DNA of 64,000 nucleotides, from assembly GCA_019244185.1 (NCBI GenBank), contig JAFATB010000019.1, positions 192,001-256,000 on the forward strand, in the 5' to 3' direction. The DNA is from Acidobacteriota bacterium. Lineage in GTDB: Bacteria; Acidobacteriota; Thermoanaerobaculia; Gp7-AA8. Every line of letters starts with the position of its first letter. The stretch's first letter is position 1. Below are positions 5,108-33,982 of this stretch, one piece after another. The notes under the pieces are model-generated. The model had not been told where the DNA came from. It did not search any database and saw nothing but the letters and a program-made list of their open reading frames with translations. The position numbers and the translations under genes are program-made.

Positions 5108-5172
5108 TAGAGAGGTAGCCTCGGGCGGTCGAATCCGCTATGTCTCCGCGCATGAAGGAAATGCGAGGACAT

Positions 5173-5766
5173 ATGCAAGAGGGTGCCTACCAGGTCCGTA
5201 ACTCGGAGTTTCATCTCACGCCCGAAGAGCTTTCGACGCTCATCGCAGGCGCGCAGTCGGAGAGAGATCGTCTCATGGTGTTGGTCTTGGCGTTTACAGG
5301 AATTCGCCGCGCGGAGCTGCGCAGCCTTCGGCCCGCCGATATCGACAGCGTCACGGAACGCCTCATCGTGCGTCGCGGCAAGGGCGGCAAGCAGCGCATC
5401 GTCTTTCTGCCAAAGCGCGTCGCCTTGGATGTATGCCGGTACGCAGGAGCGCACGCGGAGGCGTTCGTGTTCCCAGGCCGAAACGGCGGCCCCATGTCGC
5501 TGCGCAACATCAACTACATCCTCACGCGTGTCGGGAAACACGCGGGCGTGGCCACGCCAAATCCGCGATATGTCGGCATCGGCCCGCATCTCCTGCGCCA
5601 CTCGTTCGCCCGAAACTGGAAGCGGAGCGGCGGCTCCATCGAGTCGCTGCAAAAAATGCTCGGTCACGCGAGCGCGAAGACAACACTGGATTGCTACGGA
5701 ACGGAGGACTTGCGCGAAGTTGAAGCAAACTACCGCGAGCGTTGCTCGCGGCTCGTTTCGAGCTAG
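5173..5766 (+). CDS. Short tyrosine recombinase (catalytic domain only), recombinase 1
   Basis: TGIRRAEL (R), GKGGKQR (K), HLLRHSFA (HxxR), LGHAS..TT.DCY (H, Y); about 197 aa. Confidence 0.92.
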   Translation: MQEGAYQVRNSEFHLTPEELSTLIAGAQSERDRLMVLVLAFTGIRRAELRSLRPADIDSVTERLIVRRGKGGKQRIVFLPKRVALDVCRYAGAHAEAFVFPGRNGGPMSLRNINYILTRVGKHAGVATPNPRYVGIGPHLLRHSFARNWKRSGGSIESLQKMLGHASAKTTLDCYGTEDLREVEANYRERCSRLVSS

Positions 5767-8369: not shown

Positions 8370-8520
8370 GACGCTTACCTGCGCCCCCGATAGGAGGATT
8401 TCGACCGTTTCCGCAGATCGTCCGCCGCTGACTACTACAATGGTTTCCGCGACGGGAGATTTTGCACAGCACTCGGCTACGCGCCGCACTGATCTTTCTC
8501 AAACCTCTATCCCCACACCT

Positions 8521-8952
8521 ATGGCGATCAACATTCGCATGGTCGGAATGGTCACGGACGCCGTTCGCAGCCTCACGTTCACCCGCTCGGGTCTTCCGCG
8601 GTTCCGATTCGGCGTCCGCGTCGGAACCGTTCGCCCGAAGCAGTACGCCGTGACGCTCTATGGCCCGATGGCGCGGTTCGCAGACACCGCCCTTCGTACC
8701 GGGCAACGCATCCGCGTCGAAGGCGCGTACCTCCGTCGGTCGTCGCCGTACGAAGGTCTCGTGCGCGCAGACATGATTCGCCACGTCGGCCGCGCGGTGC
8801 CTCCGTACTTCGGAACCATGGTGCGGTTCGTTCCCGGAGCGCCGCCGACGCCGGCCGCCGCGCGGCCTCTCGCCGCCGATGCAGACCATCGCTCGGCGCA
8901 TGCGGTCAAGACCGCGCGCGTCATTGCTGACGCGATCGCGGCGGCGGTCTAA
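8521..8952 (+). CDS. Divergent single-stranded DNA-binding (OB-fold)-like protein
   Basis: IRMVGMVT...TRSGLPRFRFGV...YAVTLYGPMARF....LRTGQRIRVEG resembles SSB beta-strands. Confidence 0.55.
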   Translation: MAINIRMVGMVTDAVRSLTFTRSGLPRFRFGVRVGTVRPKQYAVTLYGPMARFADTALRTGQRIRVEGAYLRRSSPYEGLVRADMIRHVGRAVPPYFGTMVRFVPGAPPTPAAARPLAADADHRSAHAVKTARVIADAIAAAV

Positions 8953-9166
8953 CCACACGCGAGAAGACGGCTTCTCGGGAGGCGGTCGTAGCGTGCAAAT
9001 CTCCGTCGCCTCTTCATCGCCGTGAATGGGACGCGACTTCGACCGAGTCGCCTGACGATGCCGTCCGCATCAGCGATGCTGCTGCTCGCGAGTCGTGAGA
9101 TTGCACCGGCTGATTCGTCAGCCGCTCACGCGGTTCTTTCTCAAGCCATCCTTTCACTCCACTCCT

Positions 9167-9544
9167 ATGCGAAGCGTGAACAAAGTGATCCTCGTCGGCC
9201 ACCTTGCCGCCGATCCGGAGCAGTCCACCACGACCGCCGGACGGGTGCGCGTGACCTTCCCGGTCGCAACGCACCGGGATACCACCTCCGAGGGCGCGAA
9301 GAAGGACGTCACCGACTATCACCGGGTGACCTCCTGGGGGAAGCTCGCCGAAATCTGCGGCAAGTACCTCGCGAAAGGCCAAGGCGTCTATGTCGAGGGC
9401 ATGATCCTGAATCGCGCCTACGAGAAGGACGGCCAGCGCCGCTACGTCACCGAGATCCGCGCGGACGAAGTGAACATGCTGACGTGGAAGAAGCGGGATG
9501 GCGTCTCGAACGCCATCCTCAGCGATCTGCCTGACGGCGTGTAA
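9167..9544 (+). CDS. ssb: Single-stranded DNA-binding protein
   Basis: MRSVNKVILVGHLAADPE...WGKLAEICGKYLAKGQGVYVEG...YVTEIRA; lacks the canonical DDIPF tail. Confidence 0.95.
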   Translation: MRSVNKVILVGHLAADPEQSTTTAGRVRVTFPVATHRDTTSEGAKKDVTDYHRVTSWGKLAEICGKYLAKGQGVYVEGMILNRAYEKDGQRRYVTEIRADEVNMLTWKKRDGVSNAILSDLPDGV

Positions 9545-9745
9545 GTCCGTCGCGTCGGGGCGAGTGGCTCTCGTGCAATCTCACACTCGCTCCCACTTCG
9601 ACCGATTCGGCGATGGATTCCGGTCCGCATGTTTTCCTTCGACTGCGGACGACTTCCACGTCGCACCGGCTTCTCCTCGCAGCTGGTCTCTTTGAAAACC
9701 CACACGCACACGGCGAGCACCGGAACTCCTTAACCCTGTAATCCT

Positions 9746-9989
9746 ATGAACGCTCCTCGCTACACGCACGTGCTCCTCGACGCCGATTCGGGTGAAGCCG
9801 TGGGGGGCGATCCGCGATATCGATCAAACACCCGATGGCTCCGTCTTCGGCGTCATTCGGCGGTTCGATCGTGACGAGCCCGAGACCTACATGTGGCTCG
9901 ACGGCCTCGAGGTCATCCGACTCGCGGACGCCGCGGCGCATGTGCGGAAGCACGTCGCCTGGGCGCTCGCGCAACCCGCACCCGCATGA
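9746..9989 (+). pseudogene. Small hypothetical protein, frameshifted in the G6 run at 9802-9807 (possible sequencing error)
   Basis: MNAPRYTHVLLDADSGEAV joins GAIRDIDQTPDG...AQPAPA if one G is removed; shares the CCTATG leader of its neighbours. Confidence 0.5.
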
Positions 9990-10315
9990 CGGCGCTCGAA
10001 AAGCAGCACGCGTGGAGAAGCACGACCACCGTCTGCCCCCGGTGCGCGGCACAGCCGGGAAGTCACGCGTGGCCGAAGTCCTGGCTCCAGGAGCTGACGA
10101 TTGTCGACGGCATCCAAGCCGTCCACGGCGTGCTGTGTCGTCGGCCCTCATGCGGCTTCGCGGAGATCATCAGCCTGCGCGCCCACACCACCCCGGCCGC
10201 CGCACCCCGGCGACGCCGATGGCTCCGTGATGCCTTCGCCAAGCGCCCGGGCACGTTCGTGCTCGCGACGCTCGTGCAGGGCATCGCGATCGGTGTGCTC
10301 CTCGCGCTCGCGTAA
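9986..10315 (+). CDS. Small Cys-rich (CxxC...CxxxxC) protein with a C-terminal TM helix
   Basis: ATGA overlap; CPRC and CRRPSC motifs; hydrophobic C-terminus. Confidence 0.6.
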   Translation: MTALEKQHAWRSTTTVCPRCAAQPGSHAWPKSWLQELTIVDGIQAVHGVLCRRPSCGFAEIISLRAHTTPAAAPRRRRWLRDAFAKRPGTFVLATLVQGIAIGVLLALA

Positions 10316-10418
10316 CTCCTCTGGTGCGGTTCCGATGTGGAAGTCGCTCCGCACCTTGGGCCTCTGTCCCCACGCTGTAAGAACCAGAGCCGCGCCGCAG
10401 CCGCAGCCCGGCTCCCGT

Positions 10419-10751
10419 TCAGGTGCGGTCGATCACGGTCGCGTCCGGAGCGTTCTCCTTCACGGACTTGATGCCGCTGTCGCGCGCCGTGGTGGAGGAG
10501 TACATCTCGCTCGTGCCGATCACCTGCCCGTTCGTCGCGGTAAGGGTGAAGTACGGGCTCCCGTTCGTCGCGGTCTTGCGGACGTAGCGGGCATCGTCCT
10601 TCGCATTCTTGCGGACGGACTCGATGCCGTTCTCCGCGCCGCTCTTCGTCTCGTACGTCTCGCTCGTGAGGATGGTCTCGTAGTTCCCTGCGCGCAGGTT
10701 GAACCGGTACTTGCCGCTGCGGCCCTTCTCGATCACGAACGATCCTGCCAT
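10419..10751 (-). CDS. YegP/DUF1508 family protein
   Basis: Tandem repeats FNLRAGNYETILTSETY...GIESVRKN and FTLTATNGQVIGTSEMY...GIKSVKEN; GGAGGAG RBS. Confidence 0.93.
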   Translation of the reverse strand: MAGSFVIEKGRSGKYRFNLRAGNYETILTSETYETKSGAENGIESVRKNAKDDARYVRKTATNGSPYFTLTATNGQVIGTSEMYSSTTARDSGIKSVKENAPDATVIDRT

Positions 10752-10892
10752 GTCCGGTCTCCTCCTGGTCCGTCACAGGAGCAGTGTTCGCGCACGCTTT
10801 CGACATGCGCGTGCCCTGTCCCTCCGAAAGACACGAAGCGTGCGGAATGGTGGCGTTCAAACCGATCCTGACTGGCGTCGACGGCCGCACGC

Positions 10893-12125
10893 TCACCGCA
10901 CGACGATCTGCACACTCGCCGTTGCCGGCCCGCACGGCGTGTCGACGGTGAGGGTCACCGTGTCCGTCCCGGCATGCGTCGCCGTGTAGGTGTGCCGCGT
11001 CTCGGGTGGCGAATGCACCGGCCCGCCGAGAGCGTTGCCGAGCGACGATGCGACGCTTCCCACTTCGCCGTGCCGCTCCTGCGTCGTGTAGGAGACGTAT
11101 GTGCTTTCGCCGACCGCAAGCGACGCCTTGCCCGCCGTGAACGATTCGATGAGCGGCTTCGCGCAGGTCCACACCGTCTCGGGTCCGCCGATCCCGGCGG
11201 AGCCGCACGCACTGTCGCCGTAGAAGGTGATGTTTGCTTCGCCGGCGCGCGCCGGCGTGTACACGACCTCGATCTCGCCGTTCGCCGAGCGCGCGCCGGC
11301 CGCGGGCGTGACCGTCCCATTATCCGTCTCCACCCACCATCGCGTGATCGAGGAACCTGCGAGGAAGAGCCAGCGTTGCTGCTGGCCGACTGCAACGCGG
11401 CCGTTCGCCTGCCCGATGTCGACGGCCGGCGCCTCGCCGATGCAGCGGGCGATCGGCAGCGTCATCGAGCTCGCGCCGCAGCGGCCGGTCACCGTGAGGA
11501 CCGGCTCGGCCGGAAGGGAAGGGAAGTAGACGCGCGCGCTGCCGCCGAACGCGCTCGACCCGGCGAGCGCGTCCCGGAAGGGCTGCGCGCCCTCGATCGA
11601 CCAGAACGAGCCGTGCTCATAGCTGAACTGGAGCGTCGTAAAGGTGAAGGGCGCGAGCGCCCCGTGTTCCGCCCCGAAGCTATTAATGATCGGCGGTGGC
11701 TCGATCGGCACTGCTGCCGTCGTCTCAGGCCCGATGTCGCAGGTGGTCGCGATCGCCGAAGCGTCATGTTCGCGCGCGCAGTGACCACCATCGCCCCCGA
11801 GGAGGGGAGGTCGCACGCCACGTCGCGGATGTGGACGCGGGCGTTCGGCTCCGAGGCTTGCCACGAGACACGGACCGGCTCCCCGTCGCAGGCGGAGCCT
11901 TCGAACGTCAGCCGCACCGTGGGCTTCGAGGTGCAGGCTGAGCCGCCGAAGCGCACGGCGCGGCGTCGCACGAGCGGCCGTGTGAGCGGGTAGCAGGCGG
12001 TGGTGTCGGCCGGCGCCGCCACCTGCTGGATCTCCTCGGGCGGCGTCTGAGCGTGGGAGGCCACCGGGGCGAAGAGAAGTGTCAGCAGGCCGATGGCTCG
12101 TGCGCGGCGGGCGATGCTTCGCCAT
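10893..12125 (-). pseudogene. Secreted Ig-like repeat protein with an RRRAV motif; frameshift near 11757 (possible sequencing error)
   Basis: Signal peptide RRARAIGLLTLLFAPVASHA and RRRAVRF lie in one frame; AIATTCDIGP...VQIVVR lies in another. One extra base near 11757 joins them. Confidence 0.6.
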
Positions 12126-12156
12126 ACTGAGACTGCTCCCGCCTTCTTCCTTCCGG

Positions 12157-12184
12157 TCTCTCGAAAATGCAGAAAAGCGTCAAA
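12157..12184 (+). repeat. Putative recombinase-2 site (left), TCTCTCGAAAA-TGCAGA-AAAGCGTCAAA, overlapping the start codon
   Basis: TGCAGAAAAGCGT (12168-12180) is the exact reverse complement of 12818-12830; the left arm is degenerate. Confidence 0.55.
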
Positions 12185-12808
12185 CTCACCGGCCTCGTGT
12201 CGGCAGAACGAAACGTCCCGACCACGCGCCCATCTGGCGTGCGCTACGTATCGAAAGAGGAGGTCGAACAGTTCTTCGCCGCGATCCCGAGGGAGAACCT
12301 TCGAGATCGGCTGCTGTTCGACCTCATCTACCGTCACGGGCTGCGACGTCGCGAAGTCGCGCTCATCAGCGTGGACGACGTCTCGCTCCGCCACAGGTCC
12401 ATCTGGATCAGCCGAGTGAAGCAAGGGATCCCAGGCATGTACCGGCTACATCCGAAGACGATCGCGCTGCTGCGCGACTACCTGCCGACGCGGCACGTCG
12501 GCAACGGCCGGTTTCTCTTTCAGAGCACGAGGCGACCGGGTGCCGCGATCTCACCCTCGATGATCTACTACCTGTTCCGGCGCTATGCGACGGCGGCCAA
12601 CCTGCCGGAGGGCCGGCGGAACGTGCACGTCTTCCGGCACAGCATCGCCGTGCATTTCATGAACGAAGGCATCGACTCGGCAGACGTGAAGGACTGGCTC
12701 GGCCATCGGAGCATCTCCTCCACGATGATCTACGCCCAAGTAACGAATAAGCGGCGAGACGCGACCTACCAGCGCGTGCGCTCGTCGAAGGAGATCGCGA
12801 GGACATGA
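12167..12808 (+). CDS. Short FimB/FimE-like tyrosine recombinase, recombinase 2
   Basis: RDRLLFDLIYRHGLRRRE, ISRVKQG, HVFRHSIA, WLGHRSISSTMIY. Confidence 0.92.
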   Translation: MQKSVKLTGLVSAERNVPTTRPSGVRYVSKEEVEQFFAAIPRENLRDRLLFDLIYRHGLRRREVALISVDDVSLRHRSIWISRVKQGIPGMYRLHPKTIALLRDYLPTRHVGNGRFLFQSTRRPGAAISPSMIYYLFRRYATAANLPEGRRNVHVFRHSIAVHFMNEGIDSADVKDWLGHRSISSTMIYAQVTNKRRDATYQRVRSSKEIART

Positions 12809-12813
12809 CGGCC

Positions 12814-12841
12814 ATTCACGCTTTTCTGCAAAAGCGTCAAT
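12814..12841 (+). repeat. 28-bp palindromic putative recombinase-2 site (right), ATTCACGCTTT-TCTGCA-AAAGCGTCAAT
   Basis: 11-6-11 structure with arms 10/11 palindromic; begins 6 nt after the recombinase stop. Confidence 0.7.
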
Positions 12842-13273
12842 GCTGCCCTTCGGCAGACAGCTCATTTCGCGTTCATTTCAGACGATGGAACGCCGCTTAC
12901 GTTACCAAGCCGACCCAGTCCGTTGGTCGTCCCAGAACAACCAACACGAGGGAACTCGATGTCCATCTTTAAAGTGGACAGCATGCGTTCGGTCTAGCGT
13001 GATCTGCTAACGCCGCGTGCGGCTTCGGGGAATCCTGAGTTGCCGGCGACTTGTCACCCGTCCGCGTCCGTCCGGTCACGACTATCCCCGTTTCGCCAAG
13101 CGGCGCGGGGGCTACCCTCGCACGCTCGCGATTGCAGCCTTGGTGCGCGGCATCGTGCTCGGGCTCATCGGCGTTAGGAATACGGCAGAATGCGAGGACA
13201 CGGCGAGTCATCAGAACTCGCCGACGCGGCTATCCGCTGGGGAACCTTGAATCTTGCCGTTTTTCAGTCGAGG

Positions 13274-13302
13274 GGTAGGGAATTTTCTCTCCAGGTCACT
13301 CC
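13274..13302 (+). promoter_or_regulatory. GGTAGGGAA-N14-CACTCC motif, copy 2 (upstream of the ABC/sulfotransferase operon)
   Basis: Exact motif and spacing. Confidence 0.75.
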
Positions 13303-13393
13303 CCTTAGTGGCTCGAGCTACCACAAATGATGATATCCCTCACTCGACAGGCAGAGAGCTGGCGAGGAGGGTGCTGCCGTGAAGGAGTACCTG

Positions 13394-14392
13394 ATGAATC
13401 ATCCTCGGCGTCCAAGTGCGTTGTTCACCATAATGTTACTGCTCCTCGCTAGCTGCGCGAAAGATGAGGGACGCACAACTTCAGCGGCCCCCGCAGCGCG
13501 CGCATCTCTTCGGGTTGCTGTGAATCCGGTGCCGCAGTCCGCGCTTGTGATCATCGCCGCAGAGCGCGGCTACTTTGCACGCGAAAACCTCGACGTCACC
13601 GTCAGCCGTTTCCCTACGGGCAAGCTCGCCTTTGACGCGGTGCTCGGAGGGGCGGCCGATGTTGCGACGGTCGCCGACGTCCCAATCATGTACGCGCTCA
13701 TGTCCGGGCAGGCGCCAGCAGTACTCGCGACAATCGAACGATCTGGGAAAAGCGTCAAACTGCTCGCCCGCAAGGACGCCGCAATCGCGTCTCCTGCGGA
13801 CCTTCGCGGCAAGAAGGTCGGTACGTTCAAGGGTAGCAGCGGGGAATTCTTTCTCGACGCGCTGTTGGCCAAGCACCACGTACCATCCGCCGAAGTGGCG
13901 ATCGTACATTTACAGCCACCGGACCTAGTGACGGCGATCACCAGAAAGGACGTCGCGGCTATTAGTATCTTCGAACCCCATATCCACAACGCGGCTACAG
14001 TTCTCGGATCGAACGCGTTGGTGGTCGAGGACCCGTCGGTCTACACCGAAATCTTCAATGTCGCGACGACAGAAAAGGCCCTCGCCGCTCGGCAAGACGC
14101 CTTTGTCTCGTTCCTACGCGCTCTGCAGCGAGCCGCGGACGACATCAGGCGGGATCCGAATGGCGCGCAGGCGAGCGTCGCTCGATTCACCCAGCTTGAC
14201 CCAAATGTGCTGCGTGAAATTTGGCCGATGTTTCAGTTCACCATCACGACCGATCGTGTGCTCCCCGATCTACTACGACGCGAAGCGGATTTCGCCGTGC
14301 GTTCTGGGTCGCTGCCAGCGCCGAGCTCGGAACCACAGTTCGAACGTGTGCTCAAACCTGAAGTTCTTAGTAAGGCAACCGCTACGCCATGA
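13394..14392 (+). CDS. ABC transporter substrate-binding lipoprotein, NrtA/SsuA/TauA family (alternative start 13379)
   Basis: Lipobox LLASC; AAERGYFARENLDV; ADLRGKKVG; AAGGAG RBS. Confidence 0.9.
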   Translation: MNHPRRPSALFTIMLLLLASCAKDEGRTTSAAPAARASLRVAVNPVPQSALVIIAAERGYFARENLDVTVSRFPTGKLAFDAVLGGAADVATVADVPIMYALMSGQAPAVLATIERSGKSVKLLARKDAAIASPADLRGKKVGTFKGSSGEFFLDALLAKHHVPSAEVAIVHLQPPDLVTAITRKDVAAISIFEPHIHNAATVLGSNALVVEDPSVYTEIFNVATTEKALAARQDAFVSFLRALQRAADDIRRDPNGAQASVARFTQLDPNVLREIWPMFQFTITTDRVLPDLLRREADFAVRSGSLPAPSSEPQFERVLKPEVLSKATATP

Positions 14393-29282: not shown

Positions 29283-29786
29283 GTTGTTAGACCGCGCTAA
29301 GCGCTACGTGAAGAATTTCAACAAATCCCACGCGTTGGCGCAATGTGCGACGCGCGGCGGTGAGCGGGGCGGCCTTCACTCGGAACTCAAGCACAGGACG
29401 TTAGACACGGTCCGGCCGGATTCGTGGCGTCCTCGAGGATGCAGGGCTCGGCTATCGGACTTGCGCCGACGGCGCAGGACTGGTAGCAATCTTCTGTTCC
29501 TTCACCGACCGCAGTTCCCGAATCTGCTTCCTCAACCAACCGTCTCATGTCGCGTGCTTCGTCGCTTCCTGAAGCGTCAATCCGCAGCTTGACGGTTCGG
29601 TGGTTGATGGTAAGGATGAGGTCACCAGTTCGATCCTGGTCGTGGGCTCGCAGCGCATCCAGACGCCGGAACTCCAGCGCGCTGCCCGAAGACTGCATCG
29701 AGCGGCCGACCACATTCCGAACGTCAGAATCGTGGTCACCTTCGGTCGAGGAAGGGAGCACTCCTACCTCCTTCCTCCATTCTTCT

Positions 29787-30821
29787 ATGGGTTCGCTCCT
29801 CTCCGGTGCGTGGCCGACACCACCGCCCGCTCCTCGTCTCGACGCGTTCCAACGCCTCGCGGTCGGTGCGCCCGCATCCGCTGAACTCCCGCCTCCGGCG
29901 ACGCTCGCCGAGCTTGATCAAGTCTTCCGGCGGTTCTTCGAGGCCGCCACCGCCGTGGCGGGCCTGAGCCGCTGCACCGCACACAACTTTCAGGTGGCGT
30001 ACCGCTCGTTCCGCGCCTACCTCGTGACGCAGGTGCCGGACGACGGGGCTCCGCTCGGCGCGACCCTGCACGACATCGACGGCTGGATCGCCGTGCTCCG
30101 GACGCGTCCGCGGCCTGCCGCGGCGAACAGCATCCACCGCTACTGGCGGAGTGTCCGGGGCTTCTTCGGTTACGTTGAGCACCTGACCGGGCTCCCGTCG
30201 CCGTTCGCGGGGCTTCGGCCGCCGCGCCTGCCGGACCGAATCCCGAAGGCCCGTACACCGGCCGAGTGCGCCCGCATCCTCGCCGCCGTCGCGAACTACC
30301 CTGGCTGGTCGGCGTTCGAACGCGGCCGGAACCGCGCGCTCATCGGCATGGCGCTCTACGCTGGACTTCGCCGCGGTGACCTCGTGCGGCTCCAGTACGC
30401 AAACGTCGACGTCCAGGAGCGCACGATTCGCGTCGAAGGCGGCAAAGGTCGCGGCGGTGGAAAGGATCGGGTCGTGATGATGGCGCCGGACCTCCTCGAC
30501 ATCGTGCTCGCTTACCTCCGCGAGCGGCATCGGCGCCGGCTGGTCCTGCCCGAGTTCTTCGCGAGTACCGCAGGTCAGCGACCGATCGCTGACGTGACCA
30601 TTAACCGGCTCGTCCGACGCCTCCGAATCGCCTCCGGTGTGCCGTTCACGCTCCATAGCCTGCGGCACTCCTTTGTGACGCAGCTCCTACGTGCAGGCGT
30701 CCCGCTGCACACGGTGAGCGCGCTCGCGGGTCACACGCAGATCACGACAACCGCCGGATACCTCCGAGTGTGGGACGAGGACAAGGTTGCCGCGGTTCAG
30801 CGGCTGTCCTTCGACGGCTGA
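29787..30821 (+). CDS. XerC/D-like tyrosine recombinase (recombinase 3)
   Basis: YAGLRRGD, GKGRGGGKDR, HSLRHSF, LAGHTQITTTAGY; N-terminal core-binding region present. Confidence 0.92.
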   Translation: MGSLLSGAWPTPPPAPRLDAFQRLAVGAPASAELPPPATLAELDQVFRRFFEAATAVAGLSRCTAHNFQVAYRSFRAYLVTQVPDDGAPLGATLHDIDGWIAVLRTRPRPAAANSIHRYWRSVRGFFGYVEHLTGLPSPFAGLRPPRLPDRIPKARTPAECARILAAVANYPGWSAFERGRNRALIGMALYAGLRRGDLVRLQYANVDVQERTIRVEGGKGRGGGKDRVVMMAPDLLDIVLAYLRERHRRRLVLPEFFASTAGQRPIADVTINRLVRRLRIASGVPFTLHSLRHSFVTQLLRAGVPLHTVSALAGHTQITTTAGYLRVWDEDKVAAVQRLSFDG

Positions 30822-30832
30822 TGGTGCGCGTG

Positions 30833-31855
30833 TCACCCGGCGTCGCGTTCGATGCCTCCGAGCGGCAGGTGAAGGCGCGCCGCGTACGTCGCGTGTTCGC
30901 CCTCGAAGACGTGCGAGTACCGCTGGAGCATCGCCAGGCTTCGGTGCCCGAGCAGATCCATGCTCACGCGATCCGGCACCCCTGCCTGCCGCAGGAAAGT
31001 GGCGTAGCTGTGCCGGAGCATGTGGGGCGTCACTAAAAACCCTGCCGACGCGCTGATGCGCCGGAACAGCCGTGTCACCGCGACGAGCGGCATTGGCTGG
31101 TCGCGCCAGGTGGAAACGAAGAGCGCCGGAGTCAGTACCCGACGCTGCCCGCGAAGGGTCAGGTACGCGCGCAAGAACGCCGTCAGCTGCGGGGTCACGT
31201 ACGCGGTGCGATCGCGTCCGCCATGCCGGCCCTTGCCGCGCCGGATGAGCAGGCGTCCGCGTTCGAGGTCGAGGTCGGCGAGTTCCAACCGGAGCGCCTC
31301 GCCGCGGCGAAGCCCCGCGCAAACGTACGTCGCGATCAGCGCCACGTTTCGAGCACGTTCGAACCGATCGGCTACGAGACTGCGGGCAGAGGCGAAGACG
31401 CGATCCACTTCGGACGGGGTGAGGCAGCGCGGCTGCGGAAGCGGTGCGCGGGGACGATCGAGCAACTCGAACGGGTTCAGCGTACCGTCCAATCGTTCAA
31501 ACCGCCGGAAGATCGAGACCATCGCTTCGAAGTACGCGGCGACCGACGTGCGCTCGCAGTGCTCCATGCGGAGCGTTGCGATCCAACCTTCGATCACTTG
31601 TGTCTGCGCTGGCATATCGCCGCGCGCAAACGCGTCTGTCCGCGTCCCCCGCAGGTAGCGGGCAAATCTTCGAGCTGCGACCCGCCATCGCCGCGTCGTC
31701 GCTGGTGAGAGCCCTTCGATTCGCTCGGCCGCCAGGCAGGTTTCTTCGACACGCGTGAGGAAGGTCTCGACCGAAGCGACCGCAAACGGGCGCGATCGCG
31801 CCTGGCGGTGCCGACGATTCGGAAACCGCTCGTGAGGATAGGGAGGGGAGTGCAT
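30833..31855 (-). CDS. XerC/D-like tyrosine recombinase (recombinase 4)
   Basis: AGLRRGE, GKGRHGGRDR, HMLRHSYA, LLGHRSLAMLQRY. Confidence 0.92.
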   Translation of the reverse strand: MHSPPYPHERFPNRRHRQARSRPFAVASVETFLTRVEETCLAAERIEGLSPATTRRWRVAARRFARYLRGTRTDAFARGDMPAQTQVIEGWIATLRMEHCERTSVAAYFEAMVSIFRRFERLDGTLNPFELLDRPRAPLPQPRCLTPSEVDRVFASARSLVADRFERARNVALIATYVCAGLRRGEALRLELADLDLERGRLLIRRGKGRHGGRDRTAYVTPQLTAFLRAYLTLRGQRRVLTPALFVSTWRDQPMPLVAVTRLFRRISASAGFLVTPHMLRHSYATFLRQAGVPDRVSMDLLGHRSLAMLQRYSHVFEGEHATYAARLHLPLGGIERDAG

Positions 31856-31871
31856 GTTCTCGGATTCATGG

Positions 31872-33224
31872 TCAGGGACGGCGGACCTGCACCCGCCGCG
31901 CTTTGAACCGGCGACCCTTCAGGAGCCAGTAGCACGCGCCTACCGGCAGGTTCGCAAGCTCGCGTGTGCGCGCCGAGATCTCCTCCGCAGGCGTGAGGAG
32001 CGGGTCATCGAGCGGGTCGTACGGACGCACGGGCTCGCGGCGGATCGTTCCGAGCGGCTCGAAGAGTTCGGGCGCGAGGCTATTCGCTTCGACGTACGGC
32101 ATCTGTAAGAAGAACTGCCGCGCTGTATTGCCAAGGAGGTGCGGCCGCATCCGCGCCGGGAAGAGGGACAGACTCTGCGCGGCGAGCGTCAGATGCACGC
32201 GGTACTTCCGCGCGGCGACCAGCAGGTCTTCAAGACCGCTCTCCGGCCCGGCAAGGTTGTGCGCTTCGTCGAGGATGATCGAGAAGGGCTCGCGCTTCTC
32301 GACCGGCATCCGCTCGCGTCGGAGCGCCGCAAGCTGCAGGGCGTTCACGAGGAAGCGGCCGAGCACGTCCGCGGTCGGCCCGAGGTGGCCGCGAGCGAGG
32401 TTCACGAGCACTGTCATACGCCCGTCCACGGCAGCGAGGAGGTCGAAGGTGGACTCGGGCCGGCCGAAGAACCGTTGCACGGCGAATGACCCGAGGAAGG
32501 GATCGAGCTTGTTCAAGACGGCCGCAACGTACATCTCCTCGCGCGCGCCGAAGCGGTGCGTGAAGTAGTGCTGGGATTCTGGGCTCGCGGTGACGAGGAT
32601 GTCGCGGCGGACGGTGGCGATCAGGAGAAACGCGCGGACATCAATCAGCGTCGCAGGGACACGGCTCTCGATGAGCGCGCGCAGCGTCGCGCGGGTGATC
32701 TCCTCGACCTTCACGCCCCACGCCCACGAAGCCGCGTCTTCGGCGGCATATAGGCGCTTCAGGACCCCGACGAGGAGATCGACGTGGCGAGAGACATCCA
32801 CGCCCTCAATCGGCGCGAGGGGGTTCCACGCGGGAAGCGTCTCCGGCCGCGTGAAGTCGAGGAGCGCAAGGCGCGGGACGCCGCGCTCCTCCGCGAAGGC
32901 CCGCGTTCGCGTGAACAGGTCGCCGTGCAGATCGAGGAGCGCGACGCCTTGGCCGAGCTGGAAGTGCGCTCGTGCGATCTGCTCGAGGAGCGACGACTTG
33001 CCCGAGCCGGTCGCGCCGAGGACGAGCGTGTGCTGCCGAAGATCGTCCGGCGTGAGCCAGCAGACGACCTCCGCACCATCGGGGCCTGCGTACGTCGCGA
33101 ACGGCAGGCCGAGGCCGTGCCGTCGCAGTTGCTCATGCAGGAAGCGATCGCGGGCGAGGTAGAAATCGCGGAGGCCGCGAAGCGTTCGCGTGCGCGTGGT
33201 CTGGTGGCGGAGCGCGAGCCTCAT
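31872..33224 (-). CDS. VirD4/TraD/HerA-like ATPase (coupling-protein type)
   Basis: HTLVLGATGSGKS, LLDLHGDL, IILDEAHN, ARKYRVHLTLAAQSL. Confidence 0.85.
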   Translation of the reverse strand: MRLALRHQTTRTRTLRGLRDFYLARDRFLHEQLRRHGLGLPFATYAGPDGAEVVCWLTPDDLRQHTLVLGATGSGKSSLLEQIARAHFQLGQGVALLDLHGDLFTRTRAFAEERGVPRLALLDFTRPETLPAWNPLAPIEGVDVSRHVDLLVGVLKRLYAAEDAASWAWGVKVEEITRATLRALIESRVPATLIDVRAFLLIATVRRDILVTASPESQHYFTHRFGAREEMYVAAVLNKLDPFLGSFAVQRFFGRPESTFDLLAAVDGRMTVLVNLARGHLGPTADVLGRFLVNALQLAALRRERMPVEKREPFSIILDEAHNLAGPESGLEDLLVAARKYRVHLTLAAQSLSLFPARMRPHLLGNTARQFFLQMPYVEANSLAPELFEPLGTIRREPVRPYDPLDDPLLTPAEEISARTRELANLPVGACYWLLKGRRFKARRVQVRRP

Positions 33225-33982
33225 CGTTGACGCGCGGCAGAGATCGCGAGAAGCGCTACGACTATCAGGGCCGCCAGCGCGGCCACGGCAACCCACGTCC
33301 ACGCAGTGAGCCAGCGACCGAACTTGCGCCGCCGCCGGAGTACCCGTCGTTCGGACGCGGTGAGCGGCGGCGGGTCGGTCACGATGAGTGCCGCGTGCGC
33401 TGCGTCCCGGGCGATCAGCCGTGCGCGGCGAAGCTGCCGGAGCCGCCATCGTGCCGACACGCTCGTACGGAACCGCAGCTCGCGCGCGAGCGCCGCCATC
33501 TCCAGCGTCGCGGGCGCGCTCGTGCCGTCACGATGCAGGAGGTACAGGTAGGCGGCGAACGCGCTGCGCCCGATCCGCGGGAGTACGTGGATGAACCAGT
33601 GCGTGGGGAGGTCGTGCCGGATGGAGAGTCCCGGCGGATGCACGTCCGTCCAGGCGGGTGGCGCGGTCTCCGGCAGCTCCACGTCGAGCGTGCCGTTGGT
33701 TGCGTCGAACACGAGCATGCCCGCCGTCGAGAGCTGCTCCAGCCAACCGCGAATGCGCCGCCGTGATGCACCGAGGATCCACACGAGATCGTCCATGAAC
33801 ACGCGCCCGCCGGATCGCTGGCGGAGCGCGCGGATCGTGAGAAGCAGGAGGGCGGGCTCGCGGCCGACGTACGCGATGTCTTCGATGAACGCACCGAGAT
33901 CGGTGCGAAGCATCGTCACGCCATCGGGCGGCGTGCCGCGCTGCTGAAGGATGCGGACGGATTCGCGATCACGCTGCTGCAT
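33221..33982 (-). CDS. Hypothetical tandem wHTH-like protein with a C-terminal TM helix
   Basis: Two HTH-like segments (DLVWILGASRRRIRGWLEQL; LARELRFRT...WRLRQL); hydrophobic C-terminus; overlaps both neighbours. Confidence 0.65.
   Translation of the reverse strand: MQQRDRESVRILQQRGTPPDGVTMLRTDLGAFIEDIAYVGREPALLLLTIRALRQRSGGRVFMDDLVWILGASRRRIRGWLEQLSTAGMLVFDATNGTLDVELPETAPPAWTDVHPPGLSIRHDLPTHWFIHVLPRIGRSAFAAYLYLLHRDGTSAPATLEMAALARELRFRTSVSARWRLRQLRRARLIARDAAHAALIVTDPPPLTASERRVLRRRRKFGRWLTAWTWVAVAALAALIVVALLAISAARQR

Follow-up and report, generated by a model that had tools for sequence, protein, structure and literature searches.

Inversion switches are known mostly from host-associated bacteria, and usually consist of a promoter flanked by repeats and turned by an enzyme that is encoded outside the invertible segment. 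In E. coli, the fim-type switches (fimS, hyxS and ipuS) are worked by FimB/FimE recombinases which, like the enzyme described here, measure about 200 aa, comprise a catalytic domain only and have short inverted repeats beside their own gene. The ipuS report (PMC6083910) places one of the repeats inside the ipuA coding sequence and describes inversion as altering the end of the protein. Fim-type switches are, however, promoter elements of roughly 260-314 bp with the recombinase genes outside them, whereas at the present locus the recombinase gene is itself the segment, both sites lie in sequence that ribosomes would read, and the enzyme scores far below the FimB/FimE cut-offs.

Hin belongs to the serine recombinases and depends on an enhancer and on Fis; its H segment in Salmonella (compare Gin, Cin and Pin) carries a promoter and switches a neighbouring surface-protein gene. 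One account of Hin (PMC5903667) places the recombinase gene inside its own invertible segment. The enzyme studied here differs from Hin in being a tyrosine recombinase, and the cargo that we propose for it is a ribosome-binding site with a start codon.

Flp, the tyrosine recombinase of the yeast 2-micron plasmid, flips its own gene, which is enclosed by inverted copies of its target, FRT; there the targets sit in 599-bp plasmid repeats, the purpose is copy-number amplification and the start codon lies outside the site. The present cassette resembles Flp/FRT in that a tyrosine recombinase gene stands between inverted targets, but here the start codon is in the site. Tyrosine recombinases also drive the Rci shufflon of IncI plasmids and the vsa, vsp and vpma systems of mycoplasmas, in which the sites lie within coding sequence, so that an inversion changes which of the alternative gene bodies follows the expressed 5' part. 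In Rci sites one arm is conserved and the other variable, and in both the Rci and the mycoplasma systems several gene bodies compete and the recombinase genes lie outside the shuffled segments; here, in contrast, one cassette holds enzyme and start signal together. By sequence and fold, the closest systems are Xer/dif (XerA, XerC/D, XerH and XerS), with which our locus has the 11-6-11 site layout in common; in some Xer systems the site also adjoins the recombinase gene. Unlike Xer, the present enzyme has no N-terminal core-binding domain, its sites are two and inverted instead of one per replicon, and the outcome, as seen in relatives, is inversion and not resolution.

The locus lies in a 64-kb stretch of Acidobacteriota DNA (the window). 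Our favoured reading, which we hold to be likely, is that the 0.66-kb segment between two 6-nt cores is an invertible element made up of a recombinase gene alone, and that its flip may donate a translation start to a divergent neighbouring gene, X. A full-text literature search, with most subscription journals outside its scope, returned no description of a tyrosine recombinase gene that is the sole invertible segment and has its start codon in the site.

The recombinase gene and its paired sites

The gene (12167-12808, forward strand) encodes a tyrosine recombinase of 213 aa with a catalytic domain only, and is the entire content of the segment between the two sites. PF00589 is its single Pfam match (residues 27-195, E 9e-28, 97.6 bits against a gathering score of 27.1), the serine-invertase catalytic domain of Hin and Gin being absent. 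Residues R60, K85, H154, R157, H180 and Y189 are invariant in 23 aligned relatives and align with the active-site motifs of XerD (1a0p; R, K, H-x-x-R, H/W and the tyrosine nucleophile), by whose numbering we take their roles to be assigned. Since the frame stays open for just 12 codons further upstream before a stop (an open frame of 225 aa), a hidden N-terminal domain is excluded.

The AF2 model consists of one folded domain (mean pLDDT 81.2), with residues 1-22 and 209-213 disordered, and its top fold matches are XerA chains (5hxy) at TMq values of 0.72-0.74. Archaeal XerA is likewise the best NCBIfam match, at 116 bits against a cut-off of 220; XerC (88.7 against 335) and XerD (83 against 330) also stay below their cut-offs, and these Xer matches, whether to models or to solved chains, are confined to the C-terminal domain. 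The first-pass annotation had called the enzyme FimB-like. The single catalytic domain of about 200 aa speaks for that name, but the FimB and FimE models (NF007370, 69.0 against 221 bits; NF007371, 45.8 against 222) fall far short of their cut-offs, even though the match nonetheless runs the full length (12-196 of 200). Because of these fold, NCBIfam and domain results, the recombinase is best regarded as Xer-like by sequence, and as FimB-like solely in being a bare catalytic domain.

Both sites measure 28 bp. The upstream site (12157-12184), recognised from its sequence, its repeats and the same layout in relatives, is made up of the outer arm TCTCTCGAAAA (12157-12167), the core TGCAGA (12168-12173) and the inner arm AAAGCGTCAAA (12174-12184). 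The recombinase ATG (12167-12169) stands inside this site, with its A in the arm and its TG in the core. In the near-palindromic downstream site (12814-12841), likewise recognised from sequence and repeats and likewise of 11-6-11 layout, the arm ATTCACGCTTT (12814-12824) precedes the core TCTGCA (12825-12830), the reverse complement of the upstream core, and the arm AAAGCGTCAAT (12831-12841). A repeat search recovered inverted arms at 12168-12183 and 12815-12830 (16 nt, 94% complementary) and a hairpin-type repeat at 12813-12825 and 12830-12842; the 11-mer AAAAGCGTCAA occurs in direct orientation at 12173 and 12830. Inverted sites bracketing the gene, an exact 13-bp match between them and an ATG straddling arm and core had all been claimed from a first look at the letters, and all three are found as described. 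The exact 13-mer TGCAGAAAAGCGT occurs at both sites and nowhere else in the window or in the 5.30-Mb assembly, and when up to one mismatch is allowed there are 8 matches genome-wide, against 3 for a reversed-pattern control.

An exact inverted match of 13 nt arose in none of 5000 shuffles of the two 100-nt regions and in 3 of 2127 pairs of genomic 100-nt intervals lying 642 nt apart. The inverted pair alone is unusual, and it is the comparison with homologs that makes the case decisive. The downstream site can form an 8-bp hairpin, as would be expected of a terminator following the gene or of a chance inverted repeat; yet its fold is no more stable than those of shuffled sequences (z -0.45), a terminator scan found neither a call nor a T-run there, and the repeat is conserved and covaries across the family, which leaves this explanation with next to no credibility. 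No sigma-70-like promoter was predicted in 11900-13450.

Within the window, the downstream site is the sole zero-mismatch match to the arm pattern TTSACG-N14-CGTSAA. The upstream outer arm, by comparison, fits the arm hexamer at only 4 of 6 positions; the degeneracy of this arm, remarked on in the first-pass annotation, is real, and comparable degeneracy is seen beside copies that have demonstrably inverted. Searches of genome and window with the 13-mer, the right arm and two degenerate patterns found no third site with an A/T-rich centre. Integron-like capture at the site is not supported here, because the pair has no further partner site.

Core identity and natural inversions among relatives

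At E 1e-20 or better, relatives of the recombinase were found in 11 of the 24 other genomes from the genus, a single genome yielding as many as 6 matches, and in none of 16 from other genera. Species genomes, when scanned, contributed 51 further family loci, in records labelled Thermoanaerobaculia, Acidobacteriota, Holophagales and Aminicenantes and in one Polyangiaceae contig, and a metagenome scan added 79 more. Taken at E 1e-10 or better, the wider protein family numbers at least 345 clusters, none with more than a generic name. Including the window, this gave 131 loci, of which 15 were without a complete gene or flank and 17 without an anchor motif, so that 99 could be scored. On the reverse strand, we skipped four bases beyond TTGACG and took the next six as the downstream core; the upstream core was taken as the six bases preceding the inner-arm motif, the anchors being independent of the core. 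Three loci of an unpublished genome were also inspected, but nothing claimed here depends on them.

The first-pass annotation had pointed to homologs as the place where paired sites should recur, and there they were found: an identical 6-nt core stands at both ends in 89 of the 99 scorable loci. Once duplicate site pairs are removed, this holds for 63 of 72, and 19 distinct cores are represented. Random re-pairing of the cores gave a mean of 5.6 and a maximum of 13 matches in 2000 shuffles. At least one of the 10 mismatches, that of L086, reflects a misplaced anchor (CCCGGA in fact stands at both ends), while L148 looks like a genuine 2-base core mismatch. Because the loci are related, the counts overstate independent support, and the number of distinct matched cores is the telling figure. 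Three cores are in use in the window's own clade (at least 72% identity), namely that of the window itself (TGCAGA), one common to eight loci (TGCTGA) and one in L110 (TGATAG), and for each of them the two sites agree. Core identity bears on the nature of the sites because a recombination partner requires a matching core and a mere operator does not. The arm consensus, read toward the core, is (A/G)TT(G/C)ACG followed by four A/T-rich bases, and the arms vary between recombinase subfamilies. In some relatives (L088/L067 and L059/L072), two cassettes stand in tandem on one contig, 4-5 kb apart and each with its own core.

Two natural inversions were found in relatives of the window locus. In the first, the gene of L091 runs collinear with those of L086, L088 and L093 (76-81% identity) while both flanks are reverse-complemented, with the junctions at the core CCCGGA/CTCGGA, so that the outer arms travel with the flanks and the inner arms with the gene. 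The second involves L164 and L166, from two metagenome samples, in which the gene is collinear and 95.5% identical and a 427-nt flank (95.8% identity) has changed sides and is reverse-complemented. At the other flank, only the outer arm and about 25 nt outside it are homologous; the core, TGCGTA, again marks the junction. When the neighbours of family loci were compared at the protein level, no further flips came to light. Inversion at the cores is real in these relatives, yet with only 2 flips among 131 loci it is either rare or strongly biased in favour of one state.

The catalytic-domain-only recombinase would, we propose, bind the arms, exchange strands across the core and so flip its own gene. 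That it is the adjacent recombinase which catalyses the inversion is suggested by the linkage of gene and sites, by arms that differ with recombinase subfamily and by the lack of any other partner site. The earlier proposal of a self-inverting recombinase gains from two natural inversions whose breakpoints lie in the core; the part of it that concerns the window locus does not gain in the same way, since a flip there was unseen in contigs.

Inverted terminal sites around a single recombinase gene, several copies per genome and one variable flank could also describe an IS-like transposable unit, with the recombinase as transposase. The intragenomic copies are, however, only about 43-60% identical to the query and none is near-identical; one flank is conserved across many genomes, 29 loci having the same neighbour; and the outer arms have remained attached to the flanks in each of the two flipped pairs, which fits crossover at the core and not re-insertion. 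On account of the diverged copies, the conserved flank and the outer arms left with the flanks, we rejected this reading, which we regard as very improbable.

All comparable assemblies of the window clade have one orientation, with the X flank upstream in 8 loci besides the window. At the window locus itself, Logan contigs of three runs have the window orientation, two runs spanning the locus unbroken, and contigs of four runs contain no strand-changing joint, contigs being a form of data from which rare variants drop out. The single orientation of the window and its 8 relatives and the failure to find a flipped contig would suit a second possibility, namely that the family flips while the window copy is a locked relic whose outer arm has decayed and which has no meaningful rate of inversion; so would the degeneracy of the upstream outer arm throughout the clade and a frameshift in X (see below). 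Against decay, the core has changed at both sites relative to the closest relatives (TGCAGA versus TGCTGA), and the match between the two changes argues for selection or recombinational homogenisation in the window lineage. The recombinase ORF and all catalytic residues are intact, moreover, and the arms of the inverted L086/L091 and L164/L166 copies are about as degenerate as those of the window. We judge a locked relic unlikely, and prefer to think that the window copy would itself be able to flip, as its sites and gene suggest.

Two irregularities in assemblies of the family deserve record. Contigs of run X3 break exactly at the downstream site, with a 30-nt overlap (12813-12842), and immediately after 12842 a minor contig (312 nt; depth 3.4, compared with about 90) leads into other DNA. 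The 30-letter loose end of this continuation was not found in the window's own assembly at up to 3 mismatches; the continuation could stem from a co-occurring strain whose flank differs, or from recombination at the site. The last 55 nt of the 2198-nt contig of L079 repeat, exactly and in inverted orientation, its own upstream flank and site, and L083, an allele of 91.7% identity in the same bin, has an ordinary second flank. Either mixed orientation, leaving its trace in the assembly graph, or a genuine longer repeat could account for the inverted end, and we draw no evidence from this contig.

Flanking DNA and the dif-like alternative

Synteny with five orthologous loci extends over roughly 8400-12841 of the window, including an SSB and a DUF1508 protein, and ends at the downstream site. 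Beyond the outer edge of that site the flank is variable, and none of the five orthologs (0/5) shares it. Across the family, clustering of neighbouring ORFs gave 43 clusters among 102 on the start side, 76 of the 102 being divergent, and 57 clusters among 72 on the stop side, gene calls for such neighbours in GC-rich DNA being heuristic. The largest start-side cluster (29 members) is a divergent protein of about 228 aa, excisionase-like by eye and with no Pfam match; another, of 7, is a secreted repeat protein with weak Ig-like matches. The 11 kb downstream of each of the five orthologs had no strong match in the window's own genome, and compared with the rest of the window this DNA matched only integrase-like genes at 47% identity. 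Excision of an island was accordingly set aside, the ortholog flanks being without a strong counterpart.

Each ortholog has different DNA in place of 12842-34000, an accessory region of lower GC (55-62%) with genes for an ABC transporter, a methyltransferase, a dynamin-like GTPase and a helicase, two integrases (29547-30821 and 30833-31855) and a coupling-protein-like gene (31872-33449). On the conserved side, a Replic_Relax-family protein (1526-2452) and an SSB (9095-9544) make that side, too, resemble a mobile-element backbone. A second catalytic-domain-only tyrosine recombinase (208 aa, 5140-5766) is 28% identical to the first, and inspection of its flanks by eye revealed no comparable paired sites. 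With the Replic_Relax protein, the second small integrase, the two integrases and the coupling-protein-like gene, both sides of the window look like mobile-element DNA.

Such surroundings, which also include the SSB, would suit a quite different function, in which the downstream palindrome is a dif-, res- or att-like site serving dimer resolution or the integration of mobile elements, the upstream copy is mainly an operator for self-repression, and inversions are rare by-products. Several of the observations above point the same way: the best sequence and fold matches of the enzyme are to Xer, the 11-6-11 layout is that of dif, the stop-side flank is hypervariable right from the site's outer edge (57 clusters for 72 ORFs, compared with 43 for 102 on the start side) and is shared by no ortholog, an alternative continuation begins right after 12842 in run X3, and orientation is nearly fixed in assemblies. 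An operator, however, needs no identical asymmetric core, and yet identity between the two cores has been kept through 19 core variants; no third partner site was found in genome or window; and two inversions run precisely from core to core. We consider a dif- or att-like role quite unlikely, and continue with the reading in which the cassette inverts.

A possible exchange of translation starts with gene X

If the cassette inverts, its crossover points have consequences for translation at both ends. As assembled, the recombinase would take its ATG from the X-side arm, and when flipped it would begin at a TTG supplied by the Y-side arm; because the crossover adjoins the start codon, a flip would exchange not only this codon but also the upstream control region of the recombinase. 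The change from ATG to TTG foreseen in the first-pass annotation follows from the sequence, and both variants occur at either outer arm in relatives. In the naturally flipped L091, the recombinase begins at the TTG of its TTGACG arm. Among close relatives (L090 versus L098, L064 versus L067), the four bases between the outer-arm TTGACG and the core swap blockwise between T-runs and A-runs, which also switches the start codon between TTG and ATG.

Gene X (10893-12125, reverse strand), the divergent neighbour, recognised from its ORF and orthologs, encodes a secreted repeat-module protein that belongs to no Pfam family. Its conserved frame includes a signal-peptide-like stretch, ahead of which there is no start codon as assembled; some orthologs have possible internal starts within the hydrophobic stretch. 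The frame stays open through the 41-nt gap to the recombinase start (12126-12166, reverse strand) and on through the upstream site, and the spacing of 14 codons from the core to a conserved V-W-R motif is constant across 9 orthologs. We read the gap, from this open frame, as probably coding.

The 3' end of the recombinase gene holds a candidate outward translation start (12788-12807, forward strand), consisting of AAGGAG (12788-12793), GAGGA (12799-12803) and an ATG (12805-12807) that overlaps the recombinase TGA stop (12806-12808) within ACATGA. An outward ATG of this kind was found in 54 of 89 loci at a distance of up to 45 nt inward of the downstream core, in 22 of them as an ATGA overlap, and together with the ribosome-binding motifs it may function as a start of translation. 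The AAGGAG and GAGGA motifs fall in the codons of the C-terminal tail of the recombinase (residues 207-213, 12788-12808; ending E-I-A-R-T), which is nearly invariant in the family. Because this tail is modelled as disordered and is yet so nearly invariant, it suggests a constraint on the 3' end at the level of DNA. As assembled, the outward ATG opens a 55-aa ORF (12805-12972, forward strand) that runs across the downstream site, continues into the variable flank and probably has no function. Outward ORFs into the stop-side flank, taken as found, reach 120 aa in only 5 of the 54 loci with an outward ATG, and a general second target on that side was therefore rejected.

In-silico flipping gave a different picture on the X side. 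In the window clade, an ATG- or GTG-started ORF of 188-454 aa reading into X appeared in 10 of 10 loci after the flip, against 2 of 10 as found, and L086 and L093 likewise gained a start in the X frame. The naturally flipped L091 has a GTG at exactly this position, and from it the frame runs into X with its signal peptide. Of the 84 loci put to this test, 26 had an ORF of at least 120 aa when flipped and 12 as found. Since the flipped-state fusion is absent from the largest group, that with the excisionase-like neighbour, start donation is a property of some clades and not of the whole family.

In the flipped state, then, the ribosome-binding site and the stop-overlapping ATG would be joined in frame to the start-less X, which would be switched on and translationally coupled to the recombinase, and the orientation as assembled would be the one in which X is off. 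Whether X is in fact switched on by the donated start is, in our estimation, a matter of about even chances. In this genome the target may be dead, because X is frameshifted near 11756: a tblastn comparison with an ortholog places residues 1-154 in frame -2 and residues 155-443 in frame -1. In orthologs such as L049, X is unbroken. Contigs of three runs agree with the window sequence at this position, and the frameshift is either a real pseudogene mutation or a shared assembly error.

A broader interpretation, which we put forward tentatively and think somewhat less probable than the alternative that it fails, is that self-flipping recombinase genes are minimal, movable translation-start modules, mutually orthogonal through at least 19 natural cores, which bring about a coupled, self-resetting X-ON state. 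Both recombination sites would then be translated, and the cassette would borrow its start codon from whichever flank it happens to face. A nearly uniform orientation in assemblies would follow, because a coupled ON state would tend to reset itself.

A whole family from soil and sediment Acidobacteriota packs an enzyme, its sites and apparently a translation start into about 0.7 kb, with the crossover inside codons. If borne out, that would be a new layout for phase variation, working by the exchange of start codons instead of promoters. It would also provide a natural set of potential genetic tools, namely compact recombinases of about 200 aa whose sites measure 28 bp and whose many cores are heterospecific, and would give a handle on population heterogeneity in the poorly studied phylum Acidobacteriota.
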